DNA of 30,472 nt, from positions 1 to 30,472 of the forward strand of contig CASBQC010000085.1 of NCBI GenBank assembly GCA_949127805.1, read 5' to 3'. The translations under genes and the position numbers were made by a program. This stretch comes from Nostocales cyanobacterium PMM_0081. Its GTDB lineage: Bacteria; Cyanobacteriota; Cyanobacteriia; Cyanobacteriales; Nostocaceae. Under the pieces are notes generated by a model, which was not told the origin of the DNA, searched no databases, and saw only the letters and a program-made list of their open reading frames with translations. Below, in pieces: positions 3,214 through 30,472 of this stretch; within the stretch, counting starts at the first letter, position 1; every line of letters starts with the position of its first letter.

Positions 3214-3448
3214 AACCCTTAATCTCAATATTGAGCAAATCATCAGATTAGTGAAGCAACTAGCAATTCCAGAGCAGCATATGATATTGCAAGCCATTAA
3301 AGCAGAGGAAGATACTTGGTGGCAAAATAGACTCAATTACGGAGAGATACAGATGCGTTCTTTGAGTACAACACAAGGACTAAACTGGGATCTTATGACT
3401 GAACAGGAGCGAGAAGAATTCATAGACAATATCTTGCACGAGCAATGA
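3209..3448 (+). CDS. Putative antitoxin partner of the downstream PIN toxin
   Basis: 79-aa ORF whose stop overlaps the PIN gene start by 4 nt (ATGA). An SD-like GAGG lies upstream. No family was recognised. Confidence 0.55.
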   Translation: MATLNLNIEQIIRLVKQLAIPEQHMILQAIKAEEDTWWQNRLNYGEIQMRSLSTTQGLNWDLMTEQEREEFIDNILHEQ

Positions 3449-3852
3449 ACTCTTATATAGTTGTTTTCGATACAAACACGCTTTTTTCGGGTTTAGGTTG
3501 GCAAGGCAGTCCCTATCGTTGTTTAGAACTTGCTAGAAACAGGCAGATTGAATCTATAACTTGTCGAGAGATTTTATTAGAGTTACGCGAAAAGTTGCAG
3601 ACAAAGCAAAATCGTTCTCCGATAGACGCAGCTGTTGATATTGAGCAAATTCTTGCTTTTTCGCGCTTGGTAGAAATTCCCAATAACCTGAAAGTTGTTG
3701 TTGATGATCCTGATGATGATATGGTGATCGAGTGTGCAGTTGTAGGACAAGCAACACATATTATTACAGGTGATAAACACTTACTCTCATTAAATAAATA
3801 TCAGGATATTGATATTGTCAAAGCTGCGGATTTTCTCAATTTGCTTGCTTGA
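3445..3852 (+). CDS. PIN-family toxin (PIN_3 / TIGR00305-like)
   Basis: 135 aa with N-terminal VVFDTN, a central DPDDDMVIECA and C-terminal IITGDKHLL, the typical acidic residues of this PIN subfamily. It is a paralog of 29835..30260. Confidence 0.8.
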   Translation: MNSYIVVFDTNTLFSGLGWQGSPYRCLELARNRQIESITCREILLELREKLQTKQNRSPIDAAVDIEQILAFSRLVEIPNNLKVVVDDPDDDMVIECAVVGQATHIITGDKHLLSLNKYQDIDIVKAADFLNLLA

Positions 3853-4310: not shown

Positions 4311-4496
4311 CTAAAAAGCGATCGCTTTTATCTTCTCTATTGTAGACATCGCTTTAATTCAGTAGACATCTCCAGAAAAGACGTAGAGACGTAGCAGTGC
4401 TACGTCTCTACAAGGGTTTTGGGCAACGCGTAATTAATTTTCGGGTCTAGTTAACATATCATTAAATCTCCACACTTGAGGTGCTATAGAGATGGC
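4311..4496 (+). repeat. Copy B of the duplicated promoter/leader segment, interrupted by a MITE
   Basis: Same sequence as 3119..3213, but with about 88 bp inserted between AATTCAG and TTAACAT, which is between the putative -35 and -10 elements. The retained ATG (4492) is followed by only four codons (MALT*). Confidence 0.8.
4363..4449. mobile_element. MITE copy M1 (TAGACATCTCC... family), nested in repeat copy B
   Basis: The left TIR TAGACATCTCCAGAAAAG is intact. The core hairpin is AGACGTAGCA-G-TGCTACGTCT. The right TIR is degraded (TTTTCGGGTCTA). The empty site is visible at 3166..3170. Confidence 0.8.
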
Positions 4497-6483: not shown

Positions 6484-8571
6484 TTGCCCTGGAGTGGAGT
6501 GGCGGAGTTTGTCGGGCGTGAAAAAGAACTCGCACATCTCCACCAACTATTGCAGGACAATCACCAAGTTGCAATAGCGGCGATCGCTGGTATGGGTGGT
6601 GTGGGTAAAACTGAACTTGCGCTGCAATATGCACTTAAGCAGCGCGAATTTTACTCTGGTGGAATTTGCTGGTGTGGTGTCAAAAGCGGTGATGTGGGTT
6701 TGCAAATTGTGCAATTTGCTCGCATTCACCTAGAATTAAACCCCTTGACAGATTTGGATTTAGTCGGGCAGGTAGCATACTGTTGGCAGCGCTGGGGTGA
6801 GGGTGAAGTGTTGTTAGTGCTGGATGATGTCACTATCTATAAGGAAATTCAGCCGTACTTACCGCCTTCATCCACCCGATTTAAGGTGCTGATGACAACC
6901 AGAAAGCACTTCGGGCAGATTTCTAAATTATCATTAGATGTCCTACAACCACAAGCCGCGCTGGATTTGTTGCGAAATCTCGTTGGGGAAGAACGGGTTA
7001 ATGTAGAGACACAGGTTATCGCGTCTCTACCTGAAAGGTTGGGATATTTACCTTTAGGGTTAGAATTAGTAGGGCGGTATCTCGCAAGAAAAGAGGATTT
7101 ATCCCTCACAGAAATGTTGCAGAGGTTGGAGAAAAAGAAACTAAAAGAGCGTTCTTTGTCTCAGCCAGAAGATAACATGACAGCACAGCGGGGTGTGCAA
7201 GCAGCATTCGAGTTAAGTTGGGATGAATTAAACGACACAGATAAACAACTCGCGTGTTTGCTGAGTTTATTTGCTGCGGCACCCATACCTTGGGAGTTGG
7301 TAAAATCTTGCTTAAGTAATGTGGATGCAGAAGAGTTAGAAGAAAGTCGGGATGATAAGCTGCTGAATTTGCATTTGCTACAGCGTAAGCAAAAGGGAAT
7401 TTATCAACTGCATCGACTGCTGCGAGAATTTTTTCAAGGGAAGCTAGAAGCACCACCGTTTCAGGAGAGTTGCGGGAATTTTAAACAAGCTTTTGTCAAA
7501 GTAACGATCGCGATCGCCAAGTATATTCCTCAAACCCCCACCCTTAAATTAATCACCGCTGTCTCCCCTGCTATGCCTCATTTAGCAGAAGTAGCGAAGA
7601 ATTTTATTCAACACATTAGCGATGAAGATTTAATCTGGGCTTTCGTCGCGCAGGGTCGATTTTACAGAGGTCAGGGGTTGTATACTCAGGCAGAACCTTG
7701 GTTTAAGCAGTGTCTAGAAGTTACTAAAAAGCGCTTGGGAGAAAAACATCCCGCTGTTGCAACTAGCCTCAACAACCTAGCAGGACTTTACTCCGACCAA
7801 GGACGTTACGCAGACGCCGAACCTTTGTACCAACAAGCTTTGCAACTAATGCGACATCTTTTGGGAGAAGAACATCCCTATCTTGCACCTAGTCTTAACA
7901 ACCTAGCGTTACTCTACTCTTCCCAAGGACGTTACGCAGATGCCGAACCCCTGTACCAACAAGCTTTAAAAATGAGACGACATCTGTTGGGAGAAGAACA
8001 TCCCGCTGTTGCAGTTAGCCTCAACAACCTAGCGTTACTCCACTATTATCAAGGACGCTATAGTGAAGCCGAACCTCTAGCACTCCGAGCGATAGAACTA
8101 GATAGGCAGTTTTTAGGAGAAAAGTATCCTGATTTAGCTACAGATATTCACAATTTGGCTTTGATATACCGCGCTCAAGGACGCTATAGCGAAGCAGAAC
8201 CATTATTTCTGCAAGCCTTGAAACTCAAACAGCTTCTATTGCCAGAAGACCATCCCCTTTTGGCAGATACTATCTACGCCCTAGGTTATATGTACAGAAT
8301 CCAGGGTTGCTACACTAAAGCAGAAACATTTTCCATAAAAGCATTAGAACTCGATAAACGCTTGCTGGGAGACAACCATCCCTATGTCGCGCAAAGCTTA
8401 AACAATCTGGCAGAACTCTACAAATCCCAAGGAAGTTACAGCCAAGCCGAACCTTTATTGCAACAAGCTTTAGATATTTTTGAGCGACGGTTAGCTGTGA
8501 ATCATCCCCACACTATCACTGTTCGTGAAAATCTGGCAATTCTTCGCGCTGAAATAACTTCACAGCAGTAA
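6484..8571 (+). CDS. NB-ARC (STAND) NTPase with C-terminal TPR array, paralog 2
   Basis: 695 aa with the same Walker A, Walker B and GLPL motifs as paralog 1. The first roughly 340 aa and the last roughly 35 aa are near-identical to paralog 1, while the central TPR units have diverged. The start is TTG only. Confidence 0.9.
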   Translation: MPWSGVAEFVGREKELAHLHQLLQDNHQVAIAAIAGMGGVGKTELALQYALKQREFYSGGICWCGVKSGDVGLQIVQFARIHLELNPLTDLDLVGQVAYCWQRWGEGEVLLVLDDVTIYKEIQPYLPPSSTRFKVLMTTRKHFGQISKLSLDVLQPQAALDLLRNLVGEERVNVETQVIASLPERLGYLPLGLELVGRYLARKEDLSLTEMLQRLEKKKLKERSLSQPEDNMTAQRGVQAAFELSWDELNDTDKQLACLLSLFAAAPIPWELVKSCLSNVDAEELEESRDDKLLNLHLLQRKQKGIYQLHRLLREFFQGKLEAPPFQESCGNFKQAFVKVTIAIAKYIPQTPTLKLITAVSPAMPHLAEVAKNFIQHISDEDLIWAFVAQGRFYRGQGLYTQAEPWFKQCLEVTKKRLGEKHPAVATSLNNLAGLYSDQGRYADAEPLYQQALQLMRHLLGEEHPYLAPSLNNLALLYSSQGRYADAEPLYQQALKMRRHLLGEEHPAVAVSLNNLALLHYYQGRYSEAEPLALRAIELDRQFLGEKYPDLATDIHNLALIYRAQGRYSEAEPLFLQALKLKQLLLPEDHPLLADTIYALGYMYRIQGCYTKAETFSIKALELDKRLLGDNHPYVAQSLNNLAELYKSQGSYSQAEPLLQQALDIFERRLAVNHPHTITVRENLAILRAEITSQQ
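7003..7030 (+). repeat. In-frame GTAGAGAC...GTCTCTAC hairpin repeat inside NB-ARC paralog 2
   Basis: It translates as VETQVIASL. It lies at the same place relative to the GLPL motif where paralog 1 carries the 84-bp element. It has the same stem family as the hairpins at 25691, 25729 and 27313. Confidence 0.55.
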
Positions 8572-16825: not shown

Positions 16826-16910
16826 TAGACATCTCCGAAAAAGAGACGTAGCAGTGCTACGTCTCTACAAGGGTTTCGGGCAACACATAGTTCATTTTCG
16901 GAGATGTCTA
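16826..16910. mobile_element. MITE copy M2 with perfect 16-bp TIRs
   Basis: TAGACATCTCCGAAAA...TTTTCGGAGATGTCTA, with the core hairpin AGACGTAGCA-G-TGCTACGTCT. The ATG at 16904 used by the ORF track lies inside the right TIR. Confidence 0.85.
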
Positions 16911-16978
16911 ATGAAAGGACTGAATCTGTTGCAAATAAACAGACTCTTCCCGCAACCTCAAAAATTAGAGATAAAATC

Positions 16979-18580
16979 ATGACAGTAACTATCAAAAAAT
17001 TGTTAATCGGTGCAACAGTAGCAGCAAGCATGAGTGCGATCGCTTCAACTCCAGCTTTTGGTGCAAGCATTGTTAAGCCTACTAAGATTCAATTCACCAC
17101 CAATGGTGTCAATAACACAGATGCCAATAAACCCAACATCAATACCTGGACTTATGGTTCTGCCCAATCCGATAAGACTGGCATCGGTGGTGTAAACCGA
17201 CGAGTTTTAAACGATACCAAAAACTCCGGCAATATTGAGAAAGCCACCGCAGCTTTAACAGATAACGATAGTGCTACCAACGTTGAACTATTTACAAATG
17301 GTGAAGTTGTCACAGATCACGTTGGCTTCAGTGCTAATTTAGGAAGAAACACCGTCAAGGTAGAAAGTGTCACTAAAGATGATTGGGCTGATGGTACATT
17401 AGCAACAACATGGTTAAAAGGCTTTGGTAATGCTTACAGCGGATTATTATCAAGCATCCCAACAACTCCTGGTTCTAACTTACTCAAAGATTTTAATACT
17501 AACTTTGGTTTTTTAGTTACTACTCTGAGCACCACTGGTTTCAACTCTGCTGGCGATCCTAACATTGGAGGGATTGCATTAAGTCAAATAGATAAACATA
17601 CTGGAGAATTGAAACTTGACTTAGTTGGACACTTGAATGTAGTTGGAAAATATGTAGATCCACGAGCAACGATTGTAGATACTCGAATAACAATTAAAGA
17701 TACCCAAAAAACCATTGTAGATACGCGAGCAACGATTGTAGATAGCCGAACAACCATTAAAGATACGCGAGCAACGATTGTAGATTCGCGAGCAACGATT
17801 GTAGATTCGCAACCAACGATTAAAGATAGCCGAAAAACCATTGTAGATACGCGACCAACAATTGTAGATACACAACCAACGATTAAAGATACCCAAAAAA
17901 CCATCACCGTAAATAAGAAAACTATCCCCAATTCAAATTACAACAAAGAAATCCCCAACCCAACTTTCAATAAACAAATCGCTAACCCAAATTACAACAA
18001 AGAAATCCCCAACCCAACTTCCAATCAACAAATCCCCAACCCAACTTTCAATCAACAAATCGCTAACCCAACTTTCAACAAAGACATCCCGAACCCAACT
18101 TTTAACAAAGACATTTCCAATCCAACTTACAACAAATCTATTCCCAACCCAACTTACAACAAAGACATTCCCAACCCAACTTACAACAAAGACATTCCCA
18201 ACCCAACTTACAACAAAGACATTCCTAACCCAACCTATCTTGCTAAATCCTCAGACTTTGCTCGTAACTCTACAGGAAATGTAATCTTTGACGGGATACT
18301 GCTTAATTTAGCGAGAACAGCAGTCACAACAAATACACCATTGCAAATCAGCGAAATTGCCAAAGTGACTTTCAATGGTAAAGTTGATTATGCATTTGGC
18401 TTTAAAGCTACAGACTCTGGTGCGATCGCAGGCGATCGCAAAGATACCACATCTCACACCGGCATTTACTCTTGGAGTAAGACTTACAAAACTGTACCCG
18501 AACCTTCTGCATTATTCGGTTTAGTAGCTGTCGGTGGTTTAGTAGTTGCTTCCCGACGCAAGCGTGTGAAAAACGCATAA
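16979..18580 (+). CDS. Secreted PEP-CTERM-anchored repeat protein
   Basis: The start is moved to the ATG at 16979, which gives a signal peptide MTVTIKKLLIGATVAASMSAIASTPAFGA. The C-terminus VPEPSALFGLVAVGGLVVASRRKR is a PEP-CTERM sorting signal. Confidence 0.8.
   Translation: MTVTIKKLLIGATVAASMSAIASTPAFGASIVKPTKIQFTTNGVNNTDANKPNINTWTYGSAQSDKTGIGGVNRRVLNDTKNSGNIEKATAALTDNDSATNVELFTNGEVVTDHVGFSANLGRNTVKVESVTKDDWADGTLATTWLKGFGNAYSGLLSSIPTTPGSNLLKDFNTNFGFLVTTLSTTGFNSAGDPNIGGIALSQIDKHTGELKLDLVGHLNVVGKYVDPRATIVDTRITIKDTQKTIVDTRATIVDSRTTIKDTRATIVDSRATIVDSQPTIKDSRKTIVDTRPTIVDTQPTIKDTQKTITVNKKTIPNSNYNKEIPNPTFNKQIANPNYNKEIPNPTSNQQIPNPTFNQQIANPTFNKDIPNPTFNKDISNPTYNKSIPNPTYNKDIPNPTYNKDIPNPTYNKDIPNPTYLAKSSDFARNSTGNVIFDGILLNLARTAVTTNTPLQISEIAKVTFNGKVDYAFGFKATDSGAIAGDRKDTTSHTGIYSWSKTYKTVPEPSALFGLVAVGGLVVASRRKRVKNA
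17657..17906 (+). repeat. About 12 tandem 21-bp (7-aa) coding repeats, xTI(V/K)D(T/S)(R/Q)
   Basis: ATIVDTR ITIKDTQ KTIVDTR ATIVDSR and so on. The antisense ORFs here (17584..17931 and 17621..17896) are repeat artefacts. Confidence 0.85.
17924..18237 (+). repeat. About 11.5 tandem 27-bp (9-aa) coding repeats, IPNPT(Y/F)NK(D/E/Q)
   Basis: The last four units are nearly identical at nucleotide level (attcccaacccaacttacaacaaagac). Confidence 0.85.
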
Positions 18581-22630: not shown

Positions 22631-23194
22631 TTAGAAAACTACATCTTCGTAAAGCTCGGCTATTGTGACTTCAAAGTTAATACTGTGTAGTCGAAATGAT
22701 TTATTTTCTGCTGTGTAAAATTGCAAAACCCATAGCCCTTCATCATTACGGCGGAAACAATCGACTCGTTGACGTTTGGTGTTAATTAAAACATACTCTT
22801 TGAGACTTGATAAAGTTTGGTAATCGGCGAATTTGTCTCCCCGGTCAAAGGCTTCAGTAGAGTTAGATAACACCTCGACAATTAAACAGGGAAAACTTTT
22901 ATACGCAGGAGTTTCCTGATCTCGTCGATCGCAAGTCACCATGACATCGGGATAGTAATATCGATTTATAGATTCGATGCGTGCTTTCATGTCGGCGATG
23001 TAAACACGACAACCTGAGCCACGTACATGATTACGTAGAAGTGTAGCAAAGTTGAGAGCAATGGTGACGTGGGAATCAAGCGCTCCAGCCATTGCGTAGA
23101 TGTAGCCGTCGATGTATTCATGTTTGATGTCGCTGTGTTCCTCCATTTGGAGGTATTCGTCAGGGGTGAAGTAAATTTCAGGTGAAGCAACCAT
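22631..23194 (-). CDS. Uma2-family (DUF820) endonuclease
   Basis: 187 aa. The motifs YFTPDEYLQMEE, KHEYIDGYIYAMAG, YYPDVMVTCD and LIVEVLSNST follow the PD-(D/E)xK Uma2 pattern. Confidence 0.85.
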   Translation of the reverse strand: MVASPEIYFTPDEYLQMEEHSDIKHEYIDGYIYAMAGALDSHVTIALNFATLLRNHVRGSGCRVYIADMKARIESINRYYYPDVMVTCDRRDQETPAYKSFPCLIVEVLSNSTEAFDRGDKFADYQTLSSLKEYVLINTKRQRVDCFRRNDEGLWVLQFYTAENKSFRLHSINFEVTIAELYEDVVF

Positions 23195-27269: not shown

Positions 27270-27312
27270 GATTTTTAATATATAGCGCTTCTCATTTGTG
27301 TGCAATATGCCG

Positions 27313-27353
27313 TGTAGAGACGTAGCAGTGCTACGTCTCTACATTTATTTTTT
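27313..27353 (+). terminator. Intrinsic terminator built from a solo MITE-core hairpin
   Basis: TGTAGAGACGTAGCA-G-TGCTACGTCTCTACA is followed by TTTATTTTTT. It lies 44 nt after the stop of 25761..27269. Confidence 0.6.
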
Positions 27354-27436: not shown

Positions 27437-27575
27437 CAATCGCATTGTCACTCGATCCAATCGCATTGTCACTCGATGCAATCGAATTGGATCGCGATCC
27501 AATCGCATTGTCACTCGATACAATCGAATTGGATCGCGATCCAATCGCATTGTCACTTGATGCAATCGCGAGGGA
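27437..27575. repeat. Tandem array of two alternating 21-bp units (pattern A A B A B A plus a partial unit)
   Basis: Unit A is CAATCGCATTGTCACTCGATn and unit B is CAATCGAATTGGATCGCGATC, which contains the palindrome GATCGCGATC. Units start at 27437, 27458, 27479, 27500, 27521 and 27542. The ORFs on both strands here are repeat artefacts. Confidence 0.9.
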
Positions 27576-27698
27576 TATTTTTGCATTGGTATAAATTCAA
27601 TCAACAAGCGCTTTTGGGCTATCTTTTTTCTGACCGGAATTGGAAAATCTGAAAGTGTAATCTATTACCATGTAGATGTCGCAACTTTGCAGGTTAAA

Positions 27699-29477
27699 AT
27701 GACAGGCGAACCGATTATTAAATTCACCTTTGCCGTTGACGATCGAGAGTTAGATGATGAAAGACGGCAAAAAATAGCGAACAAGCTGCTACGGGAAATC
27801 CGAGATTTGGATGAGGTTGAGAAGGCAGACCGTGGGTCAGATTTAAACCCAGAAGCAGGAAGTAAAGGGTTTGCCACTTTAATCGGAGTGCTGACGGCTG
27901 AGGTGAGCATGAAGAATGTCAAAAGCTTTTTAGGGTTTTTGAGCGATCGCTTGGCAGACAAGCCAATAAAAATTAATATTAAAGTTGGCGATAAAGAAGT
28001 CAACATTGAAGCAAAAAGCCGAAAAGAACTATTAGAAAGTGAGAGAATAGCAAAAGACCTGTTAGCTGCAACGGGTGGTGGAGCAAATAGACATCTCCAG
28101 AAAAGACGTAGAGACGTTCCACTGGAACGTCTTTACAAGGGTTTCAGGCAACTCATAATTAATTTATGGAGATGTTTAATGCCTAAGAAGATAGCGCTAC
28201 TGATTGGAGTCAGCAAGTATGGTGAAGGAATACCACCCCTATCATCTGCTCTCAATGATGTGGAAGCATATGCACCCAAGAATCCAGAAGCAGAGTATCG
28301 CAAACTTGTTGAACAATATGCCCAAAATGGTGAACTTAGTAAACTTTCCTACTTAATATTAAAGCCGAAACGGAAAACATTTGGAATTACAGATGAAAAA
28401 GCCGAGCAAATAGAAAGCGAAGTATTAGAACCTTTACGCAGACGCTTTGCAAACTTAGAAAGTTACAAACAAGCTTTTATTGAGGTAGTTGAGCAAAAAT
28501 ATCCCCTGGATGAACATACTCGTAAGATACTCAAGGATTTAAGCCAGGATATTTTAGGTCTGAGAAATGAGGATATAGCACCAATTGAGTTAGAGATTAC
28601 ATCTGCTAAAAAAGCGGAATATCGAAAACAAGTTCAGATACAGAAAGAACAAGAAAAAGAAGAGTATGAAAATAGCCTGCGGTATTATGAGCAGGAATTT
28701 ACAAAAGCAGTTAAAGTGCAATACCCGCTAGATGAATATGTCCGCAATGGATTAAAACAGTTTCAAGAGTCTTTAGGACTCAACGATGAAGATGTAGAGC
28801 GAATTGAAGCACCACTTTTAATTAGAAAACAAGCAGAGTACCAGAAACAACAACAACAAGAAGTCAAGAAGCAGCGACAAGAACAACAATCTATTCAAAT
28901 AACAACTGTAAAACCAACGCAGCAGAATAATGAGCTCAGTTCTGAGAAGGATGTAAACTATACGCGGTTGCGCGATTTACTCAAAGCTTACGAGTGGGAA
29001 GAAGCAGATAAAGAAACTCTCGCAGTGATGCTCAAAATCGCTGACAGAGAACAAAAAGTCTGGCTTGATCCCGAATCGATTAAAAACTTTCCTTCCACTG
29101 ACTTACGCACCATTGACCAACTGTGGGTAAAATACAGTGATGGGCGCTTTGGGTTTAGTGTGCAGAAGCGCATTTGGGAAAGTGTAGGTAAAGACTACAC
29201 AAAGTTAGGCGATCGCGTCAGCTGGCGGACGTATGAGACACTTATACAGAAGAATATAGTAGAATGTTTAGAGGATATTAATAAAAAGTTGGGATTCAAA
29301 GAAGAAGCCGTAACGAGGACGGGTGCGAAATGGCTCTACTACACAGACCTCACTTTTGATATTCATGCTCCCAAAGGACATCTTCCTGCAACACTAGCTA
29401 GAGGGGAGGGAGAGCATAATGACTTTGGTGGGGGTTGGGTATGTGTGCCAGCTCTTCTCTCGCGCCGAGACTTGTAA
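27699..29477 (+). CDS. Composite ORF: EACC1-like module + in-frame MITE + caspase N-terminal remnant + helical repeats + GUN4 domain
   Basis: It is one open frame. Residues 1 to about 130 (LLREIRDLDEVEKADRGSDLNPEAGSKGFATLIGVLTAEV...IKINIKVGDKEVNIEAKS) resemble the effector-associated constant component EACC1. Nt 28088..28178 is a MITE. An internal ATG at 28179 gives MPKKIALLIGVSKYGEGIPPLSSALNDVEA, a peptidase C14 N-terminus, but no His/Cys catalytic region follows. The C-terminus WEEADKETLAVML...FPSTDLRTIDQLWVKYSDGRFGFSVQKRIW is GUN4-like. Confidence 0.7.
   Translation: MTGEPIIKFTFAVDDRELDDERRQKIANKLLREIRDLDEVEKADRGSDLNPEAGSKGFATLIGVLTAEVSMKNVKSFLGFLSDRLADKPIKINIKVGDKEVNIEAKSRKELLESERIAKDLLAATGGGANRHLQKRRRDVPLERLYKGFRQLIINLWRCLMPKKIALLIGVSKYGEGIPPLSSALNDVEAYAPKNPEAEYRKLVEQYAQNGELSKLSYLILKPKRKTFGITDEKAEQIESEVLEPLRRRFANLESYKQAFIEVVEQKYPLDEHTRKILKDLSQDILGLRNEDIAPIELEITSAKKAEYRKQVQIQKEQEKEEYENSLRYYEQEFTKAVKVQYPLDEYVRNGLKQFQESLGLNDEDVERIEAPLLIRKQAEYQKQQQQEVKKQRQEQQSIQITTVKPTQQNNELSSEKDVNYTRLRDLLKAYEWEEADKETLAVMLKIADREQKVWLDPESIKNFPSTDLRTIDQLWVKYSDGRFGFSVQKRIWESVGKDYTKLGDRVSWRTYETLIQKNIVECLEDINKKLGFKEEAVTRTGAKWLYYTDLTFDIHAPKGHLPATLARGEGEHNDFGGGWVCVPALLSRRDL
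28088..28178. mobile_element. MITE copy M3, inside the composite ORF
   Basis: TAGACATCTCCAGAAAAG...TTATGGAGATGTTTA. The core hairpin here is AGACGTTCCA-C-TGGAACGTCT, two compensatory pair changes relative to M1 and M2. It translates as NRHLQKRRRDVPLERLYKGFRQLIINLWRCL without a stop. Confidence 0.8.
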
Positions 29478-29554
29478 ACTTTAACATATAAGGCTTACAG
29501 TAAATGTAAAGATTTACAATCAAGTCATTGCCTACGAAGTATTGACAAAAGTCC

Positions 29555-29645
29555 AGGACTTACGCACGGACCACGTGTTTCCGTCATTGCGACGCAAGGA
29601 AGCAATCTCAAAGTCTTGTTTTCTCGTAACAAGTGCGTAAGTCCT
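29555..29645. mobile_element. MITE with perfect 13-bp TIR AGGACTTACGCAC / GTGCGTAAGTCCT
   Basis: The terminal inverted repeats enclose about 65 bp, including GTCATTGCGACGCAAGGAAGCAATC, which is related to the 2985..3090 core. Confidence 0.7.
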
Positions 29646-29834: not shown

Positions 29835-30260
29835 TTAGAGCATATCAGGAAAATAATGACTGAGAAAAACTTGTGGTGTCAAAATCTGAATATCGTTAAA
29901 TTCGTTTAAGACCAGTAAATCTAAATCACCAGTAATAATAACTTCAGCATTAGCAGCTAAAGCCGTTTCTAGAATCACAATATCATCTGGATCGCGCAAT
30001 TCAGGAACATCTACAGCCTCTGTTGAACACGATTCTGACAACTGTCGTACTACAGCAAGCAAATCTTCTACAGTTACACCCAAAGACTGTATTTTTGTTT
30101 GAAGTTTTTTACGCTCTAGTATTTCTTTTATATCTTCCCGTATCGGTTCAGAAACAAAAATAGTAATTTGGTAAGCTTCCGCTAAATCAAAAATCCGACC
30201 CGGAACTCCTACCCAAAGCAAACCGGAAATCCAAACATTGACATCTAATACAATCCTCAT
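29835..30260 (-). CDS. PIN-family toxin (PIN_3 / TIGR00305-like)
   Basis: 141 aa with the motifs VLDVNVWISGL, DPDDIVILETA and IITGDLDLL. It is a paralog of 3445..3852 and overlaps the upstream antitoxin by 4 nt. Confidence 0.8.
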   Translation of the reverse strand: MRIVLDVNVWISGLLWVGVPGRIFDLAEAYQITIFVSEPIREDIKEILERKKLQTKIQSLGVTVEDLLAVVRQLSESCSTEAVDVPELRDPDDIVILETALAANAEVIITGDLDLLVLNEFNDIQILTPQVFLSHYFPDML

Positions 30261-30472
30261 GCTTTAGAACGTCTTTCCCTTCGTACTTCCTTGACAATTT
30301 CAATAATTTCTTCTAAAGAAGGTTGGTTGGGGTCTGGTTCGGATTCCTCTATTATTTGCGATAACTTGTTCCAAGTCAGTGGCTTGCGGATTTTTTTCAT
30401 GACAATTTCCGCTTCTGTAATTGATACCATATATTCATCGCCAGGACTCAGTTTTGCCTGCATTTCTGCTGG
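30257..30472 (-). CDS. AbrB/SpoVT-like antitoxin, 5' end cut by the window edge
   Basis: The frame stays open to nt 30472 (PAEMQAKLSPGDEYMVSITEAEIVMKKI, which looks like the second half of a SpoVT-AbrB domain). The true start is probably outside the window. Confidence 0.6.
   Translation of the reverse strand, partial: PAEMQAKLSPGDEYMVSITEAEIVMKKIRKPLTWNKLSQIIEESEPDPNQPSLEEIIEIVKEVRRERRSKA

Follow-up and report, generated by a model that had tools for sequence, protein, structure and literature searches.

A MITE-bridged reading frame joining an EACC1-family module to a caspase-less repeat-GUN4 protein in a Nostocales cyanobacterium: a probable case of conflict-module decay

EACC1 and its partner caspase constitute a two-gene conflict system (Kaur, Burroughs, Iyer & Aravind 2020, eLife, PMC7159879). 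In the Nostocales cyanobacterium PMM_0081, a contig of 30,472 nucleotides, hereafter the window (the whole stretch of DNA that was analysed), carries a single reading frame in which an EACC1-family module is joined through a MITE to a protein deprived of its caspase. The question raised by this locus is whether the frame is the remnant of a decaying system or a rewired one, two outcomes that the earlier note, made from the sequence alone, had left side by side.

Anatomy of the fused reading frame

The fused ORF occupies positions 27687..29477 of the forward strand, on which all oriented features below also lie, with a TTG at 27687, the first ATG at 27699 and the stop codon at 29475-29477. It is one open frame, of 596 aa from the TTG and 592 aa from the ATG, as the earlier note had described, and the NCBI gene call on the same contig (P0121) is the 592-aa fusion with 100% identity; that protein forms a one-member cluster in a database of 5.8 billion proteins. 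The computed masses are 68.6 kDa for the fusion from ATG 27699 and 50.4 kDa for the 432-aa product from ATG 28179, which replace the 66 and 49 kDa given previously. Four pieces follow one another in the frame: the EACC1-family module, the MITE, a caspase N-terminal stub, and helical repeats with a GUN4 domain. Upstream, 3′ of the amine-oxidase gene, a terminator-like GTAG palindrome with a T-run (27312..27344) forms the upstream boundary of the transcription unit. An Rfam scan found no known RNA families anywhere in the window.

The EACC1-family module (27699..28087, 129 codons), supported by its homologs, a profile link to PF19953 and an AF2 model, ends two residues and a stop codon short of the 131/132-aa standalone orthologs and is otherwise complete. 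Its homologs (n = 138) are nearly all standalone proteins of 130-134 aa. The earlier note had named a failure to match EACC1-type profiles as counter-evidence to this identity, and no Pfam or NCBIfam EACC1 model matches the module directly: PF19953 gives nothing at E <= 1 with either the module or the whole ORF, and the precomputed Pfam entry is '-' for all 120 homologs listed. A family profile built from 40 members, however, retrieves 281 representative clusters at E <= 1e-3, and PF19953 EACC1 is matched by 22 of the 91 clusters scanned among those retrieved. P0380 reaches 33.4 bits with PF19953 (cut-off 23.6) and E = 1.4e-10 with the window-family profile, and hhalign of A2 against A3 gives a probability of 100% and E = 1e-44 over 132 columns, A3 being built from A2-profile hits and not independent. 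Moreover, the downstream gene has intact orthologs that match NCBIfam NF047832, 'caspase, EACC1-associated type'. These comparisons indicate that the module is homologous to bona fide EACC1 proteins at the profile level. The cyanobacterial subfamily is too divergent for a direct PF19953 match. The Pfam model misses Nostocales EACC1, which carries a 'hypothetical' annotation; a subfamily profile would help.

Alignment and AF2 model give the module the EACC1 architecture, that is, a small alpha+beta protein with a hydrophobic small-residue segment and a central loop. The near-invariant positions are E47 D48 .. P51 E52. G54 S55 K56 G57 F58 A59 T60 L61. G63. The model (pLDDT 78.7) consists of b-a-b, a disordered loop at 46-64 and then b-a-b-b-a; the loop begins near the near-invariant D48, and pLDDT is below 50 at 52-57. 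Foldseek of the model against the PDB retrieved only generic ferredoxin-like/dimeric alpha-beta-barrel folds (best E = 0.018). Matches of the N-terminal module to PH_NF1, AAA_lid_4 and Rad50 hook in Pfam, NCBIfam and PADLOC (E > 0.03), and one to Cas7/Cst2/DevR (17 bits against a cut-off of 72.75), were rejected as chance.

The downstream protein has its own ATG at 28179, immediately 3′ of the MITE as had been claimed, and opens with the caspase stub MPKKIALLIGVSKYGEGIPPLSSALNDVE (28179..28264; DNA 97.7% identical to L005), whose exact length of 29 aa replaces the former estimate of about 30 residues. The helical EYRK / YPLDE / LGL-EDV repeat region (28265..28940) is collinear with the 640-aa orthologs and leads into the GUN4 domain (28941..29399; residues 255-407 of the 432-aa product), which Pfam PF05419 recognizes with 145.3 bits against a cut-off of 29.2 over profile positions 2-128 of 141. 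A second EYRK/YPLDE repeat, a 30-aa GUN4 insert and a C-terminus divergent from that of L001 were considered as extra lesions and rejected, because the 640-aa ortholog group normally has all three; the repeat and the insert are common to P0122-P0130. A PADLOC match to PD-T4-6 (2.4e-42) covers the GUN4 part only and was rejected as a sign of system membership.

The 91-bp MITE (28088..28178) is a small element without coding capacity of its own, with TIRs TAGACATCTCC / GGAGATGTTTA. The inverted repeats at 28088-28103 and 28163-28178 mark its ends, their 16-nt arms showing 88% complementarity and an 11-nt core, TAGACATCTCC. It is open in one of the three forward frames, exactly the one used by the fused ORF, where it encodes the linker (N)RHLQKRRRDVPLERLYKGFRQLIINLWRCL. 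Further copies at ~4363-4450 and 16827-16907 make three in the 30-kb window, with none expected by chance; relatives of the element reside on three Nostoc plasmids, and no IS with the same TIRs was found in the 30-kb window. An AAT direct repeat flanks both the junction copy and the copy at 16827-16907, and in these flanks a 3-nt AAT duplication is indistinguishable from a 2-nt TA duplication plus one extra ancestral codon. The MITE core is a GTAG-tagged palindrome, GTAGAGACGTTCCACTGGAACGTCTTTAC (28108..28136), found also alone at 27314-27342 and of the kind catalogued as the GTAG-tagged REP class (PMC3733652). As RNA, the element is predicted to fold with -40.5 kcal/mol (z = -7.6). A second MITE-like insertion, with 13-nt perfect TIRs AGGACTTACGCAC / GTGCGTAAGTCCT (29554..29645), lies 77 nt past the stop codon and is missing in L018.

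The ancestral junction and the deleted caspase core

The EACC1 and caspase-repeat-GUN4 genes were said to be separate and adjacent in relatives, and the orthologous loci confirm it. The nearest relatives, with 90-94% DNA identity, belong to Tolypothrix, Scytonema, Hassallia and Spirirestis; the order MlaD - ABC - amine oxidase - EACC1 - caspase/GUN4 is shared by L001, L005, L006 and L008, with flanking genes 91-98% identical. L001-L006 and most of the 40 genome loci have a caspase-family gene directly 3′ of EACC1, the two as a rule overlapping by 8 nt, while in the window the 3′ partner is reduced to the 29-aa stub. In the intact pairs the EACC1 gene, of 130-138 aa, overlaps the ATG of the caspase-repeat-GUN4 gene by 8 nt, its stop TAA lying within the caspase ATGCCTAAG; the caspase-repeat-GUN4 protein has 640 aa in the closest orthologs. 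The MITE is lacking at this junction in ~45 related Nostocales loci, the junction being uninterrupted in L001, L003, L005 and L006, and the orthologous empty sites read GGTGGAGCAAATGCCTAAG. Relative to them the window has 92 nt extra, so that a +1 frame offset becomes an in-frame junction. The MITE lies exactly at the junction and is open in the used frame, as had been proposed. An apparent junction 'insertion' of 137-198 nt in Scytonema hofmanni UTEX 2349 (L007, L012) was rejected, as it corresponds to scaffold N-runs.

Alignment to L005, the closest ortholog (94-98% DNA identity), reveals one clean in-frame deletion of 624 bp, or 208 codons, between 28264 and 28265: window 28179-28264 corresponds to L005 5001-5086 and window 28265-29477 to L005 5711-6923. 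The missing codons are aa 30-237 of the 640-aa ortholog, and among them are both the catalytic His (SGHG) and the catalytic Cys (DACYSG). The scar, AGCATATGC (28262..28270), joins the parental ends GAAGCTATGCAG and CTAGCATATGCC, with AGC(A)TATGC microhomology at both ends of the deletion. Neither Peptidase_C14 (PF00656) nor NF047832 matches the window protein at E <= 1; with NF047832, orthologs P0128 and P0124 reach 174.6 and 164.3 bits (cut-off 140). The downstream protein is therefore caspase-less as claimed, and the alignment of MITE-free loci, a check that the earlier note had advised, recovers the original stop/start as well as the extent of the deletion. A metagenome scan with the deletion-junction 20-mer AATGATGTGGAAGCATATGC yielded no second instance of the allele; two matches were rejected, being unrelated sequence with no similarity to the locus.

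Decay and the competing readings

The remnant shows a signal of relaxed constraint. In it the window lineage has 3 synonymous and 21 nonsynonymous private changes; L005, L006 and L018 taken together have 29 and 34 (Fisher p = 0.005, window remnant versus intact orthologs). Compared with the neutral site ratio the window remnant does not differ (p = 0.45), whereas the intact orthologs do (p = 7e-6); the test comprises 24 changes, scores multi-nucleotide codon changes crudely as nonsynonymous and does not tell relaxed constraint from positive selection. Of the alignment columns that do not vary among nine intact orthologs, 13 hold a residue private to the window, against 0-5 in the closest six. 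In the EACC1 part the private changes are 8 synonymous to 5 nonsynonymous.

A mechanism can be drawn by analogy with the Ktedonobacter racemifer system, the only one in which EACC1 cleavage and pore formation have been shown experimentally. EACC1 is there a pore-forming toxin that requires cleavage by the partner caspase; its N-terminal half is autoinhibitory, a cleavable loop links that half to the C-terminal one, the caspase cuts at Asp49, the C-terminal fragment is toxic, EACC1 causes liposome leakage, and toxicity is lost in the catalytic Cys mutant (Evans et al. 2025, bioRxiv 10.1101/2025.11.14.688446). In the intact Nostocales relatives, EACC1 would likewise be a latent pore-former held by its N-terminal half and translationally coupled, through the 8-nt overlap, to the caspase-helical repeat-GUN4 protein, the GUN4 end of which is probably a sensor or regulatory module. 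Once activated, the caspase would cut the central loop, here perhaps at or near D48, and the freed C-terminal fragment would oligomerise into a membrane pore and kill the cell.

We propose that in the window strain this chromosomal, vertically inherited module of heterocystous cyanobacteria is decaying and that the ORF fusion is accidental, a reading that we hold to be very likely. Two independent lesions, whose order we infer, account for the allele. A microhomology-mediated deletion took out the entire catalytic core in frame, so the EACC1 toxin would no longer be activatable in cis. The MITE inserted in the AATG stop/start overlap, where it did away with the stop codon of EACC1 and with translational coupling; since the insertion contributes 92 nt and leaves the frame open, the two ORFs became fused. 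The fusion would be a by-product without selected function, and the caspase-less remnant would then have accumulated changes at the neutral ratio. Decay is favoured over rewiring because of the neutral-looking substitutions, the singleton allele and recurrent inactivation elsewhere, the caspase gene being broken in other ways in at least 5 other genomes (frameshifts in L011 and L016, truncations in L015, L022 and L033). Of the two outcomes left open earlier, decay thus gains support and rewiring receives none that is positive. Against decay count the 592 fully open codons, the 145-bit GUN4 domain and the 8:5 private changes of the EACC1 part, nothing being visibly broken besides the deletion.

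That same open frame, with intact EACC1 and GUN4 domains, is what a rewired functional fusion would look like, with the EACC1 pore-former tethered to a protease-free helical-repeat/GUN4 scaffold and either activated by a caspase in trans or serving as decoy or regulator of other EACC1-caspase systems. The ratio of private changes in the EACC1 part fits such a protein, and natural fusions of EACC1 to protease or other domains are known (P0284, P0343, P0309, P0278), P0284 being an EACC1-CHAT protein on at least 24 contigs. Since some relatives have a pair of EACC1-caspase loci in one genome (Scytonema hofmanni L009/L012, Tolypothrix carrinoi L014/L043), a paralogous caspase outside the 30 kb analysed could act in trans. 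Nevertheless, the allele is absent from all ~45 related loci, the remnant evolves at a neutral ratio, and the linker is arbitrary MITE sequence. Moreover, the C-terminal fragment, which is the toxic one in the tested system, would here bear a tail of ~460 aa. EACC1 is C-terminal in most natural fusions retrieved by the family-profile search. We consider such a fusion improbable. If it were expressed and processed in trans, mobile elements could rewire a toxin-protease pair; the evidence points away from this.

It is likewise improbable that the fusion is irrelevant and that the MITE acts as a portable promoter and ribosome-binding cassette for the 50.4-kDa repeat-GUN4 protein, which we take to be a putative tetrapyrrole-binding protein, in a non-defence role. 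The best sigma-70-like match of the region, TTTACA-16-CATAAT (28132..28159, 10/12), lies within the MITE and points to the downstream ATG; a Shine-Dalgarno-like GGAG in the right TIR (28167..28170) precedes ATG 28179 by 8 nt; and GGAG and start codon are arranged in the same way where the copy at 16827-16907 meets ATG 16904. These signals, which are consensus matches only, could still yield a protease-free 50-kDa protein, although on full-length transcripts starting upstream GGAG and ATG would be sequestered by base pairing in the MITE hairpin, and the neutral pattern of the remnant speaks against a maintained product. Other Nostocales have repeat-GUN4 proteins of 385-419 aa that lack the caspase (P0192, P0215), but P0215 lies next to a truncated TIR fragment and may be a remnant too. 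Several 'GUN4-only' homologs were rejected as natural protease-free analogues, most being fragments of broken caspase or TIR genes; P0139, P0160, P0172 and P0180 are obvious fragments of broken caspase genes. Just as improbable is a combined version in which the MITE, with its promoter-like site and a GGAG 8 nt before a start in two of three copies, would express the protease-free EACC1-GUN4 fusion, the standalone repeat-GUN4 protein or both, to be cleaved in trans by, or to titrate, a paralogous EACC1-type caspase; if true, it would be a natural case of a mobile element turning a toxin-protease suicide module into a decoy or into a component regulated in trans. Finally, an assembly or sequencing artefact at the deletion or the MITE junction is highly unlikely. 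The allele is known from one assembly, and the N-runs at the same junction in UTEX 2349 indicate that the region can assemble badly; on the other hand, both junctions are precise and in unique sequence, the window has no Ns, the deletion is in frame and shows the kind of microhomology that accompanies genuine slippage, and both TIRs of the MITE are intact, with an AAT repeat flanking the element.

Read as decay, the locus offers a well-documented case of the death of a conflict or suicide module in multicellular cyanobacteria, through microhomology deletion of the protease and a MITE at the gene overlap. Such events create long, plausible 'multidomain' ORFs that automated annotation accepts, as the NCBI call illustrates. 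The strain provides a natural caspase-null allele with intact EACC1, a possible control for tests of cyanobacterial EACC1-caspase-GUN4 systems.

Comparison with known systems

The locus and its relatives share with the EACC1-caspase system the small 5′ EACC1 gene adjoining a 3′ gene for an N-terminal caspase with a variable C-terminal module, the multicellular cyanobacterial hosts and, through its profile link to PF19953, the EACC1 family itself, whose members Kaur et al. 2020 (PMC7159879) describe as small, of alpha+beta type and marked by a single conserved hydrophobic segment in which small residues abound; in the window family this segment is central and follows a flexible, Asp-containing loop. 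The window strain departs from that system in having no caspase catalytic core and in the MITE-mediated fusion of its genes, which would make the defining activation step impossible in cis. Among the GUN4-fusion proteins of cyanobacteria (kinase-, TIR-, CHAT- and caspase-GUN4; PMC7159879), the downstream protein resembles the caspase-GUN4 type, with EYRK/YPLDE helical repeats before a C-terminal GUN4 and 86-90% identity to the 640-aa orthologs, but its enzymatic head is gone save 29 residues. The intact relatives would also resemble bacterial gasdermin-protease modules, a parallel drawn by Evans et al. (bioRxiv 10.1101/2025.11.14.688446), in which a neighbouring protease cuts away an autoinhibitory part, leaving the rest to form a membrane pore; EACC1 is, however, unrelated to gasdermins in sequence and fold, its PDB matches being weak and generic.

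The element itself finds its counterparts in the MITE and small-repeat ORF fusions of bacteria, such as Anabaena MITEs (Wolk et al. 2010) and Rickettsia RPEs, reviewed by Delihas 2011 (PMC3184786). As in these and in Nezha, a small non-autonomous TIR element forms a strong hairpin, occurs in several copies, occupies a site that is empty in relatives and has an ORF in frame with chromosomal ORFs. Its 91 bp fall short of the length of Nezha in Anabaena/Nostoc (~130-170 bp). Whereas the known cases extend or interrupt a single gene, the MITE in the window bridges two formerly overlapping genes of one operon.

Layout of the fused frame and loss of the caspase

One frame stays open from a TTG at 27687, with its first ATG at 27699, up to the stop at 29475-29477 and encodes 596 or 592 amino acids; the public gene call on the same contig, P0121, is exactly the 592-aa product and the only member of its cluster among about 15 billion proteins. 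The frame is composed of a 129-aa module (27699-28087), a 91-bp MITE (28088-28178) with inverted repeats TAGACATCTCCAGAAA / TTTATGGAGATGTTTA and a perfect-stem palindrome inside, a caspase N-terminal stub, MPKKIALLIGVSKYGEGIPPLSSALNDVE (28179-28264), and helical EYRK/YPLDE/LGL-EDV repeats that lead into a GUN4 domain (28265-29474; PF05419, 145 bits). The GUN4 region (residues 215-409 of the 28179-29474 product) also matches the PADLOC model PD-T4-6 (2.4e-42), an anti-phage candidate, so GUN4-like domains are also present, away from any caspase, in at least one catalogued defence protein.

Closest to the downstream part are its orthologs P0122-P0130, Peptidase_C14 plus GUN4 proteins of 637-640 aa from Tolypothrix, Scytonema and metagenomes, with 86-90% identity. 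The DNA alignment to the closest orthologous locus, L005, whose gene is intact, consists of two blocks only, window 28179-28264 with L005 5001-5086 (97.7%) and window 28265-29477 with L005 5711-6923 (93.7%). A single in-frame deletion of 624 bp (208 codons) has thus removed residues 30-237, and with them both SGHG (His) and DACYSG (Cys), which bears out the loss of the catalytic region proposed in the earlier note. Caspase profiles detect nothing in the remnant downstream of the MITE, and the orthologs reach 164-175 bits with NCBIfam NF047832, "caspase, EACC1-associated type". The parental deletion ends, GAAGC/TATGCAG and CTAGC/ATATGCC, have AGC(A)TATGC in common, as would be expected of slippage or a microhomology-mediated deletion. 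What looked odd beside the 561-aa protein of locus L001, a second repeat unit and a 30-aa GUN4 insert, is normal for the 640-aa group.

The upstream module

The upstream module is an EACC1. Its family comprises tightly conserved standalone proteins of 130-134 aa in Nostocales and other filamentous cyanobacteria (138 matches), labelled hypothetical in annotation and with no Pfam matches among them. A profile of 40 members (A2) reached 281 representative clusters when run against 1.84 billion proteins, and 22 of the 91 scanned contain a PF19953 EACC1 match; the identity assigned earlier therefore stands through the reach of this profile, and not through any Pfam match in the family itself. Alignment of A2 with a second profile, A3 (probability 100%, E = 1e-44), provides no independent support, since A3 was drawn from matches to A2. 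PF19953 misses this cyanobacterial subfamily, one protein of which is mislabelled "sugar ABC transporter permease".

The AF2 model of the module (pLDDT 78.7) predicts a beta-alpha-beta unit, a disordered loop (46-64) and a beta-alpha-beta-beta-alpha unit. In the family alignment the loop starts at the near-invariant E47-D48 and leads into an invariant Gly-rich segment, GSK(P)GFATLIG. Both features fit the conserved hydrophobic segment abundant in small residues described for EACC1 by Kaur et al. (PMC7159879) and the experiments of Evans et al., in which a caspase cleaves EACC1 at Asp49, the N-terminal piece being autoinhibitory and the C-terminal piece forming membrane pores (bioRxiv 10.1101/2025.11.14.688446). 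The EACC1 profile also found natural fusions, EACC1-CHAT, caspase-EACC1, COR-A/COR-B-EACC1 and TRADD-N-EACC1 (P0284/L051; P0343, P0309, P0278); the EACC1-CHAT protein P0284 occurs on at least 24 contigs, and in L051 a separate 769-aa Peptidase_C14 gene comes next.

The MITE at the gene junction

In the syntenic loci L001, L003, L005 and L006 the EACC1-type and caspase-repeat-GUN4 genes are separate and adjacent, as stated in the earlier note, and their junction is uninterrupted (...GGTGGAGCAAATGCCTAAGAAG...); the small gene, whose TAA lies within ATGCCTAAG, overlaps the downstream start by 8 nt. Alignment to these MITE-free loci recovered the ancestral overlap and, with L005, the extent of the deletion. 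The window junction has 92 nt more, with an AAT repeat on the flanks; as the ancestral frame offset is +1 and 92 = 2 mod 3, the insertion brings both frames into register, and the only one of the three MITE forward frames without a stop is that actually entered. The placement of the MITE exactly at the junction, open in the frame used, was therefore correctly described. None of about 45 related loci carries a MITE there; in Scytonema hofmanni UTEX 2349, what look like two junction insertions are runs of N in the scaffolds.

Further MITE copies lie at about 4363-4450 and 16827-16907 of the window (matches expected by chance, 0), and three Nostoc plasmids carry relatives. Folded as RNA, the element gives -40.5 kcal/mol (z = -7.6). 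Its core is a perfect palindrome starting with GTAG, GTAGAGACGTAGCAGTGCTACGTCTCTAC, present within MITE copies at 4383-4411, 16840-16868 and 28108-28136 and solo at 27314-27342, and it belongs to a class of GTAG-tagged REPs that has been described from filamentous cyanobacteria (PMC3733652). The solo palindrome (27312-27344) comes immediately behind the amine-oxidase gene; a T-run follows it, and by its score the site resembles an intrinsic terminator. The copy at 16827-16907 adjoins ATG 16904 of a 558-aa ORF (16904-18580; no Pfam matches) in an arrangement, GGAGATGT[C/T]TAATG, that repeats the one at 28179, and GGAG 8 nt before an ATG together with AAT flanks is found in two of the three copies. 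This placement may reflect an AATG target preference, or the element may be kept as a ribosome-binding or promoter cassette.

In intact relatives, the caspase would be activated by a sensory or regulatory signal that plausibly enters at the repeat/GUN4 end, and would cut EACC1 within the loop; the C-terminal fragment would then oligomerise into a pore, leading to cell death. Beyond the input step and the cleavage site, which we infer, the scheme is taken by analogy from the tested Ktedonobacter system. Here, with the protease gone, the toxin has no activator in cis. The MITE has also deprived EACC1 of its stop codon and undone the coupling of stop to start, so that ribosomes from 27699 must make a 68.6-kDa chimera with a MITE-encoded linker of 31 residues. 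Initiation at ATG 28179, yielding a product of 50.4 kDa, is conceivable; the region's strongest sigma-70-like match (28132-28159) and a GGAG (28167-28170) both lie within the MITE, but in a read-through transcript GGAG and ATG would be buried in the predicted hairpin.

Decay, rewiring and known systems

The locus is a mosaic. Its EACC1 part (27699-28087) is nearest to L001 (93.7% DNA, 95% aa), where the caspase partner belongs to the short 561-aa type, whereas the downstream gene (28179-29477) is nearest (about 94%) to the 640-aa type of L005 and L018, in which EACC1 identity drops to about 90%. These similarities hint at allelic recombination where the two genes meet. Between the amine-oxidase gene and EACC1 lies a tandem array (27437-27569; 21-nt unit, 42-nt super-unit, 3.2 copies, 91% matches) with several frames open on both strands; array-like repeats precede EACC1 in Scytonema hofmannii FACHB-248 (L006) and none do in L001, L005 and L018. 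Conflict-type genes abound nearby: two NB-ARC + TPR STAND NTPases (267-2555, 6484-8571), two PIN_3 toxin-like genes (3445-3852, 29835-30463), one with a small partner ORF upstream, and a Uma2-family endonuclease (22631-23194).

The bridged frame was confirmed as a whole, and of the two outcomes that the earlier note had left side by side, decay or rewiring, decay is probable, being favoured by three independent observations: the substitution pattern, the unique allele and the breakage of the same gene elsewhere. In the remnant, the window lineage has 3 synonymous to 21 nonsynonymous private changes, not distinguishable from the neutral site ratio (p = 0.45), against 29:34 in pooled L005, L006 and L018, which are strongly constrained (p = 7e-6); the difference has a Fisher p of 0.005, on a small and crudely counted sample. 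Window-private residues occupy 13 columns invariant in nine intact orthologs, compared with 0-5 for the six closest. The deletion-plus-MITE allele is unique among the sequences searched. The caspase-GUN4 partner is independently frameshifted (L011, L016) or truncated (L015, L022, L033) in at least 5 of 40 species-representative genomes, each time beside an intact EACC1, a pattern suggesting that the protease may often be lost before the toxin; among the "GUN4-only" proteins in databases, several are pieces of such broken caspase genes. A second MITE-like element (29554-29645, 92 nt, perfect 13-nt TIRs AGGACTTACGCAC / GTGCGTAAGTCCT) lies 77 nt past the stop of the fused ORF, is single-copy in the window and has no counterpart at the corresponding position of Tolypothrix brevis (L018).

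Decay is tempered by the EACC1 part, which is intact (8:5 private synonymous to nonsynonymous changes), and by relatives that can hold two EACC1-caspase loci, so that cleavage in trans would be possible in a strain viewed here through a 30-kb window. Together with natural fusions such as EACC1-CHAT, these points speak for functional rewiring of the fused ORF; against the neutral-like remnant, the unique allele and the breakage elsewhere, we consider it very unlikely, and an assembly or sequencing artefact more improbable still.

The locus belongs to the EACC1-caspase two-gene system, as a degenerate member of the cyanobacterial caspase-GUN4 form. In-frame ORF fusions by small repeats, MITEs included, are documented, with Anabaena among the hosts (reviewed by Delihas 2011, PMC3184786, after Wolk et al. 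2010). The present locus differs from these in that the MITE bridges two formerly overlapping operon genes, an arrangement best read as neat, yet accidental.
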